DNA of 64,000 bases. It comes from Escherichia coli. Lineage in GTDB: Bacteria; Pseudomonadota; Gammaproteobacteria; Enterobacterales; Enterobacteriaceae. Shown here in pieces: positions 60,455-61,555 of this stretch (position 1 is the stretch's first letter; each line of letters opens with the position of its first letter). The stretch is taken from NCBI RefSeq assembly GCF_024223415.1, contig NZ_CP100500.1; one strand, written 5' to 3'. The notes under the pieces were generated by a model. It was not told the origin of the DNA. It did not search any database and worked only from the letters and a program-made list of their open reading frames with translations. A program made the position numbers and the translations under genes.

Positions 60455-61555
60455 TTAGAACTGATAGGTAATGCCCGTAGCGACGATGTTATCGGTGCGA
60501 ATATCTACGGCACGGGTAAAGTCGCTTTCATCAATCAGGTTGATTTTATAATCAACATAGGTCGACATATTTTTGTTGAAGAAATACGTCGCACCAACGT
60601 CGATATACTCAATCATGTCCTGGTCGCCGTAGCGGCCCAGATCTCTGCCTTTCGATTTCAGGTAAGCGAGTGAGGGGCGCAAGCCGAAGTCGAATTGATA
60701 TTGCGCCACCACTTCAAAACTTTGTGCTTTGTTAGAAATATAACCATCGCCATAGGTGGTCATGTTTAATGTTTCAGCGTAATTAGCTGCAAAGTAGATG
60801 TTGTTGGCATCATATTTTATACCTGTAGCCCACAGTTCTGCATTCTTACCGGAGGCATTGAGAGGATTAGCAGCGGCTCTTTCCTGCGCATTTGTCCGAT
60901 CGGATTTGGTATATACCGCACCGATACCAAAGCCATCATAAACATAAGTTGAGGAGATACCGAAACCGTCACCGTTGGCACGCGTGTAGTCAGCACCATA
61001 AAGATGACTGTTGTCAGTACGTTCATTTTTGCCTTGATATTGCGCGGCAAAGTTCAGCCCTTCAATTAAGCCAAAGAAATCGTAGTTGCGATAGGTTGCT
61101 ACACCGGTGGTACGGTATGTCATGAAGACATCTTTCTGACTCCAGGTATCGCCACCAAATTCTGGCAACATATCGGTCCATGAACCAATGTCATAGCCGA
61201 CACCGTAGTTACGACCATAGTCCAGAGAGCCAAATTCACTAATTTTTAAACCAGCATAGGCCAGACGGGTCTTGTTGCCGCGCGAGCCGTTGGCTTCATC
61301 GTTATAGCCTTTAAAATCATATTCCCAGTGACCAAAACCAATCATTTGATCATTGATTTGCGTTTCTCCTTTAAAGCCGAGACGGGCATAAGTTTTATCA
61401 CCATCGTCACGCTTATCATCAGTAAAATAACGTAGAGCGGTAACCTTGCCATAAAGGTCGAGTTTATTACCATCCTTGTTATAGACTTCGGCAGCGTGTG
61501 CTACGTTCGCAGCTAACAAACCAGTTACAACCACCGCAACTATTTTTAATTTCAT
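60455..61555 (-). CDS. yddL: general porin (OmpC/OmpF/PhoE family), full length 366 aa
   Basis: Signal peptide [37 protein letters not shown] start of mature porin, C-terminal ...GITYQF; symbol by synteny. Confidence 0.85.

Follow-up and report, generated by a model that had tools for sequence, protein, structure and literature searches.

A full-length porin gene of the OmpD type between yddG and narU in Escherichia coli, and its deletion remnant yddL in K-12

The porin gene and its neighbours

We analysed a window of 64,000 nucleotides of Escherichia coli DNA (RefSeq assembly GCF_024223415.1, contig NZ_CP100500.1), and all positions given here are those of this whole stretch. At 60455..61555, on the minus strand, the window contains a real and complete porin gene (366 aa plus stop), which we place among the ompD-type general porins and which was identified from the ORF list together with Pfam, NCBIfam, PDB, AF2 and Foldseek comparisons. 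Judging from the ORFs of the window, it lies directly downstream of yddG, between fdnGHI and narU-narZ. The first-pass annotation had described the ORF as a complete 366-aa porin of the OmpC/OmpF family with a signal peptide and a ...TYQF end, a description that is borne out by the reading frame, the Porin_1 match and the PDB matches. The translation ends in ...ATGITYQF, and its first 21 codons (61493-61555, minus) encode a signal peptide that is predicted by aligning the protein with OmpC and OmpF, whose cleavage sites are known. The Pfam profile PF00267 (Porin_1) matched with 448.8 bits (cut-off 23.7), residues 27-366 covering profile positions 1-337 of 337, and the OmpK36, OmpC and OmpF chains in the PDB aligned with the whole mature protein at E-values of 1e-127 to 1e-112. 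The NCBIfam model NF007841, "porin OmpC", scored 496.1 bits, just over its cut-off of 484; the model has "subfamily" rank and is no equivalog, and the models compared included none specific to OmpD. Scores against the OmpF and PhoE equivalogs of NCBIfam were well below both cut-offs.

The structural evidence agrees with a general porin. All of the constriction residues K16, R42, R82, R132, D113 and E117 (OmpF numbering) are kept in an alignment with OmpF, OmpC and PhoE, as are the PEFGGD motif and the C-terminal Phe (...YQF). The AF2 model has 17 strand elements and a short L3 helix (residues 119-127); its confidence is moderate (pLDDT 68.5) because the input alignment had 25 sequences. In OmpF, the N-terminal and C-terminal segments form one shared strand, and the modelled barrel would accordingly count the expected 16 strands if its N-terminal (22-25) and C-terminal (357-365) segments share one. 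Foldseek aligned the model with OmpC (2j1n) at TM scores of 0.85/0.90, within a range of 0.85-0.91 over OmpC, OmpK36 and OmpF. Going by what is known of the family, the precursor would be exported via Sec and cut after AHA at residue 21, and BAM would fold it into the outer membrane by way of the C-terminal ...YQF signal. The product would be a trimer of 16-stranded beta-barrels in which loop L3 (PEFGGD), facing a basic ladder, narrows each pore, and small hydrophilic solutes would diffuse through the channel.

Signals for expression flank the reading frame on either side. A Shine-Dalgarno sequence, AAGGA (61565..61569, minus), was read 9 nt 5' of the ATG and is invariant in all six aligned sequences. 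A strong intrinsic terminator (60410..60443, minus) begins 12 nt past the stop codon and consists of a 9-bp stem with 6 G-C pairs followed by TTTGATTTAA.

Outside the porin gene, the interval between it and narU is filled by a low-GC (29-37%) block of LRR genes (57570..60454, minus). This block is missing in E. albertii, and in Salmonella and C. koseri GFA-smvA-smvR stands in its place. It includes an intact LRR ORF of 421 aa (59026-60291, minus) with weak similarity to LRR proteins of the SlrP/SspH2 type, and an espR1 homologue, coding for a T3SS effector LRR protein, that a frameshift has split into ORFs of 254 aa (58220-58984) and 174 aa (57708-58232), both on the minus strand. The window thus has an intact first LRR gene, as in EAEC 042, and a frameshifted espR1, whereas O157:H7 has the first LRR gene split (Z2240/Z2241) and espR1 intact. 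The espR1 split corresponds to a 1-bp deletion around 58235, in comparison with the intact espR1 of O78 strain 3, a genome that is 99.9% identical. Across the 421-aa LRR ORF we found no sequence difference between O78 strain 3 and the window; the annotation of O78 strain 3 shows only a short pseudogene fragment there, and this label is probably an annotation inconsistency.

Two further observations concern the wider neighbourhood. A 195-aa ORF ends at an in-frame TGA at 63514, and the Rfam model SECIS_3 matches just past it (84 bits, 63509-63567, plus). The TGA is the selenocysteine codon of fdnG, and the break in the ORF is therefore no pseudogene. At about 36000-46100 (O78 strain 3 coordinates, 1-nt offset) the collinear O78 strain 3 genome has vgrG, an RHS core protein and a small ORF, followed by a frameshifted ltrA and an ISAs1 transposase; the ltrA near vgrG-rhs in O78 strain 3 is a degraded group II intron reverse transcriptase. 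The first-pass annotation had also called vgrG-rhs intact, in agreement with the intact annotation in this nearly identical genome.

Origin of yddL in K-12

The K-12 derivatives RP437 and C600 match the porin gene only at nt 1-284/281 and are annotated there as "yddL: porin, incomplete, missing C-terminus"; NEB 5-alpha and XL1-Blue are likewise of the short type at this locus. In RP437 the gene order is fdnGHI, yddG, yddL (276 nt), a frameshifted LRR pseudogene and narU. The yddL frame of K-12 (b1472) has 96 aa, made up of 93 porin residues and KNL before the stop. It had been proposed that K-12 carries only a yddL fragment at this position, and this is what the K-12 derivatives hold, namely the 5' ~281 nt. 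The alignment to K-12 yddL that had been suggested as a check was run, and a full-length gene was not found in K-12.

Pairwise alignment resolved the K-12 state into two missing segments. The first comprises 1,547 bp (59734..61280), with copies of CGGCAA at 61280..61275 and 59733..59728, so that the deletion junction lies at a 6-bp microhomology. Its loss takes porin codons 94-366 together with the 5' part of the first LRR gene and fuses codon 93 into the middle of an LRR gene. The second comprises 653 bp (58767..59419) flanked by copies of a 12-bp repeat, CATTGATTTATC, that lie in two LRR genes paralogous to each other, and its loss creates the chimeric yddK/yddJ pseudogene of K-12. The size published for O-island 62 of EDL933 is 1,548 bp (PMC3079680), which is equivalent to the 1,547-bp segment. 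What is left upstream of the first junction, that is, the promoter region, the 5' UTR and the first 93 codons, is identical between K-12 yddL and the window. These results demonstrated that the K-12 lineage destroyed its porin gene by a 1,547-bp microhomology deletion and that the surviving promoter, 5' UTR and 93 codons are yddL.

Both the full-length gene and the K-12 truncation were already known, from Z2239 of O157 and from ompD of EAEC 042. The O157:H7 allele (EDL933 Z2239, O-island 62) is the same gene as the porin of the window, with 99.4% DNA identity, two amino acid differences and the same flanks, and so is Ec042-1601 of EAEC 042. It has been previously reported that the interval from yddG to narU accommodates O-island 62 of EDL933 (Z2239-Z2242) and orfs 1601-1599 of strain 042, and a similarity of yddL in K-12 to the 5' end of Z2239 was noted; in that work the porin was never discussed, and a yddK insertion was given as the origin of the K-12 state (Okeke 2011; PMC3079680). 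An "apparently functional ompD" (Ec042-1601) was noted in EAEC 042, with nmpC named as the ompD pseudogene of K-12 (Chaudhuri 2010; PMC2808357), and nmpC was again taken as the E. coli equivalent of ompD in a later study (Fröhlich 2012; PMC3333887). A paper from 2023 treated yddL as an uncharacterised protein of 96 aa with a four-strand beta-barrel (PMC9976479). To this record we add the exact deletion junctions, the orthology argument for yddL as what is left of ompD, figures on how often each state of the locus occurs and a test for selection. The true ompD remnant of K-12 is yddL, and not the prophage gene nmpC.

Relationship to OmpD and alternative readings

We consider it very probable (about 0.9) that the ORF encodes the E. 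coli counterpart of OmpD, the general-diffusion porin of enterobacteria, and that it is an orthologue inherited vertically between yddG and narU. Sequence identity to the C. koseri porin is 78% and to Salmonella OmpD 73.5%, as against 59-62% for OmpC, OmpN, OmpF and PhoE of K-12. Outside E. coli, the ranked homologues were C. koseri (78%), other porins of Citrobacter and Enterobacter (72-75%) and Salmonella proteins annotated "porin OmpD" (72-73%). In a neighbour-joining tree the porin grouped with the yddG-adjacent porins of other genera, although on a long E. coli branch, and an OmpD clade without the K-12 proteins OmpC, OmpN, OmpF and PhoE was recovered in 100 of 100 bootstraps. Gene order points in the same direction: in Salmonella and C. 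koseri it reads fdnI-fdnH-fdnG, yddG, porin, GFA, an smvA-type MFS gene, TetR (smvR), narU and narZ, and E. albertii has a porin copy split by IS1 in the same slot after yddG. In E. hormaechei, one deletion was reported to hit both yddG and ompD (PMC11874173).

The closest known system is thus OmpD of Salmonella (STM1572, "nmpC/ompD"), the major porin of S. Typhimurium, with which the window porin shares the slot, the signal-peptide type and the pore residues. The two loci differ in their downstream neighbours, which are GFA-smvA-smvR in Salmonella and the LRR/espR1 genes in E. coli, and in the length of the yddG-porin intergenic region (258 bp in E. coli and 524 bp in Salmonella).

Two other origins of the gene have to be weighed against OmpD orthology. 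On the account of Okeke 2011, the porin would belong to a recently acquired island (O-island 62) and the K-12 state would come from the insertion of yddK; for the island, a GC content of 33-36% and a restricted distribution have been published (PMC3079680). The adjoining LRR genes fit this picture, as their GC content is low and E. albertii, Salmonella and C. koseri are without them. The porin itself does not: its GC content of 43-47% is typical for the region, and Salmonella, C. koseri and E. albertii likewise have it next to yddG. Moreover, the LRR pseudogene of K-12 consists of two LRR pieces that are separate in the window and joined at the 12-bp repeat, and its junction with the porin lies at the 6-bp microhomology. 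Because both junctions are deletion signatures, an insertion of yddK is unlikely for K-12. We therefore regard the island account as highly improbable, and import of the whole island followed by yddK insertion is ruled out for the porin by GC content, synteny and the deletion junctions. The contrast in GC content, together with the absence of the LRR genes from E. albertii, Salmonella and C. koseri, argues that imports are confined to the LRR genes and that the porin is an ancestral gene of vertical descent.

The second possibility, that the gene is a porin of the prophage NmpC/Lc type or a duplicated copy of OmpC or OmpN, draws on the above-threshold NF007841 score, on the label "ompC: porin OmpC" that RefSeq genomes give to the gene (PGAP), and on the NmpC/Lc proteins themselves, which are 67-69% identical to it and fall within the wider OmpD clade. 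However, identity to OmpC and OmpN of K-12 is only about 62% (61.7% for OmpC), the porin grouped with OmpC in 0 of 100 bootstraps, and the true ompC and ompN loci lie elsewhere in K-12, that of ompC between apbE and rcsD. The OmpC, OmpN, OmpF and PhoE proteins of E. coli share the fold and the pore-lining residues with the window porin but belong to a separate clade. As for the prophage porins, there are no phage genes near the window porin, and its signal peptide is of the OmpD type (MKLK.VAV.VT.LLA), unlike MKKLTVAISAVAAS of NmpC/Lc. We find this second possibility barely credible: NmpC (DLP12) and Lc are prophage-borne at another locus and count as paralogues or xenologues instead of the positional orthologue, and identity with either NmpC/Lc (~68% identical) or OmpC/OmpN was ruled out. 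The suggested alignment to OmpN and OmpC thus showed a porin that is like neither of them and is instead the orthologue of Salmonella OmpD. Furthermore, the first-pass view of a non-K-12 lineage retaining ancestral accessory functions is supported with a refinement. The gene order shared with Salmonella, C. koseri and E. albertii and the deletion junctions show the full-length form to be the ancestral state, and for a vertically inherited gene "ancestral" is a better word than "accessory".

The value of assigning the gene to OmpD is chiefly one of annotation, since its family is very well known and the gene is unremarkable within it. Reading yddL as the stump of ompD clarifies the "porin OmpC" label in RefSeq, the use of nmpC as ompD in the sRNA literature and the "uncharacterised" yddL of 2023.

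Regulation, locus states and selection

The region between yddG and the porin (61556..61813, minus) contains the putative promoter and 5' UTR, and its proximal ~170 nt before the ATG can be aligned with the upstream regions of ompD in Salmonella and C. koseri. Within it, a CRP-like site, TTCGActtcgaTCACA (61701..61716, minus; -161..-146 from the ATG), is proposed from a match to 8 of 10 consensus positions, and its position is conserved in E. coli, E. albertii, C. koseri and Salmonella. A conserved TAAAAA (61635..61640, minus) is the candidate -10 box, as judged from the homologous start site that PMC4911921 implies for Salmonella ompD. In Salmonella the ompD 5' UTR is 69 nt long (PMC4911921); with this as a guide, transcription of the E. 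coli gene would start near 61628, giving a 5' UTR of ~73 nt, and the centre of the CRP-like site would fall ~81 nt 5' of the start, near the class I position. Upstream of Salmonella ompD, the CRP-like site, the -10 box and the RBS occur at equivalent positions. Salmonella ompD is said to depend on cAMP-CRP, as Santiviago reportedly found in 2003. By analogy, CRP may bind at 61701..61716, and the conserved promoter-proximal region and its CRP-like site suggest catabolite-dependent expression of the E. coli porin, as in Salmonella ompD. Salmonella OmpD has also been reported to rise under anaerobiosis and to be lowered at low pH (PMC4215857). The anaerobic rise is in keeping with the first-pass suggestion to profile expression under anaerobic conditions. 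An Rfam scan of 55000-64000 gave no structured RNA or riboswitch in the porin leader, the fdnG SECIS element being the sole match.

The predicted sRNA pairing sites differ between the two genera. The E. coli counterpart of the Salmonella ompD RybB site, UGCGGUGGUU (CDS +18..+27; 61529..61538, minus), pairs only by way of two G-U wobbles. The pairing energy was -13.7 kcal/mol in E. coli compared to -18.3 kcal/mol in Salmonella, and shuffled targets gave -10.6 +/- 2.2 kcal/mol with a 5th percentile of -14.7, so that the E. coli value is not beyond the best 5% of shuffles. The MicC site, which is experimentally defined in Salmonella ompD, pairs at +66..+79 (codons 23-26) with -15.5 kcal/mol in Salmonella and C. 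koseri; it was not found in the porin of E. coli and E. albertii, whose best value of -7.7 kcal/mol is at the level of chance. Loss of this site is a regulatory feature and no criterion of orthology. With full-length SdsR, duplexfold returned energies equal to those of shuffles. In Escherichia, the RybB site of the porin gene would thus be weakened, and the MicC site is absent.

To place the window allele among other genomes, we compared the porin gene by megablast with 5,426 complete E. coli genomes. Coverage of the gene reached 80% or more in 1,111 of them (~20%), a figure that counts DNA coverage and not intact reading frames: the copy in B19429, for instance, is counted despite an internal stop. 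Most of the other matches span only nt 1-281/284 and are annotated "yddL: porin", and ~1,159 genomes gave no match. The K-12 deletion is present in ~58% of the 5,426 genomes, and ~21% have lost the whole interval. When the whole yddG-narU interval was used as the query, the full interval was found in ~1,008 genomes and the K-12-type double deletion (53% query coverage) in the majority. In the third main state the interval is deleted completely and 272 bp separate yddG from narU, as in ZH193, which is without 61729..57571 of the window. THO-008 has a separate 1,117-bp deletion of the porin 3' end, and IS insertions were also among the lesions seen in the interval search. Other E. coli lineages have thus lost the gene independently, by deletion of the whole interval, by another 3' deletion or by a nonsense mutation, and E. 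albertii by insertion of IS1. Some Salmonella lineages have lost ompD as well; OmpD is absent from S. Typhi (PMC4215857). Several independent lesions in E. coli, together with E. albertii and S. Typhi, show that loss of ompD is recurrent. About one fifth of sequenced E. coli, EHEC O157:H7 included, carry a full-length ompD besides ompC and ompF, with reading frames checked in few. One may speculate that this bears on antibiotic permeability, on phage and colicin receptors or on the cross-reactivity of OmpD-based vaccines.

Where the gene is intact, it appears to be maintained. Intact E. coli alleles gave dN/dS values of 0.02-0.06 at dS of 0.065-0.089, with differences that are almost all synonymous, and the exact protein sequence of the window occurs on at least 1,000 contigs. 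This strong purifying selection indicates that the porin is most likely expressed and useful where it is kept. One might instead suppose that the intact ORF is silent and at present without function, as a gene in decay that is heading for loss. Such a fate would agree with the repeated independent loss in E. coli, E. albertii and S. Typhi (PMC4215857), with the lost MicC site and the weakened RybB site, and with literature searches on Z2239/ECs2076 and on chromosomal ompD of E. coli that gave no specific expression data. We think it very unlikely, since dN/dS remains this low among alleles with differences at 6-9% of their synonymous sites, the pore-lining residues, promoter-proximal region, RBS and terminator are all intact, and one exact protein sequence recurs on so many contigs. 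Like ompN and nmpC, the E. coli porin gene could nevertheless be quiescent in laboratory culture.

A bolder proposal is that Escherichia ompD has been rewired post-transcriptionally relative to Salmonella, with MicC lost and RybB weakened, and that the promoter, 5' UTR and 93 codons of yddL are still transcribed in the ~58% of genomes that carry the deletion. We regard this combination as quite improbable. If yddL is transcribed, it could act as a decoy for sRNA or Hfq or give rise to a secreted fragment of 75 residues, which would leave the "pseudogene" with a residual regulatory role. The repeated loss of ompD might then be adaptive, for example through escape from phage, colicin or antibody, or through reduced permeability.

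Three minor observations were made during this survey. The porin protein is near-invariant in E. coli, with 1-4 amino acid differences at 6-9% synonymous divergence (alleles L003, L018, L019 and L020). The surface loops of E. coli OmpC are much more variable, and the invariance of the porin could reflect either low exposure to phage and immunity or low expression. In the database clustering at 90% identity, the cluster containing the window porin has as its representative a 603-aa LepA/EF4 of Roseburia, and LepA proteins are numerous in it. An artefact of the clustering in the database seems likely, and because of it the full-length E. coli cluster is missing from the listing of the homology search. 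In addition, the right edge of the ZH193 deletion (57570) coincides with the point at which homology to E. albertii resumes after its porin (57569), so that the porin may be all that the lineage with the total deletion has lost, and the LRR genes may never have been present in it.
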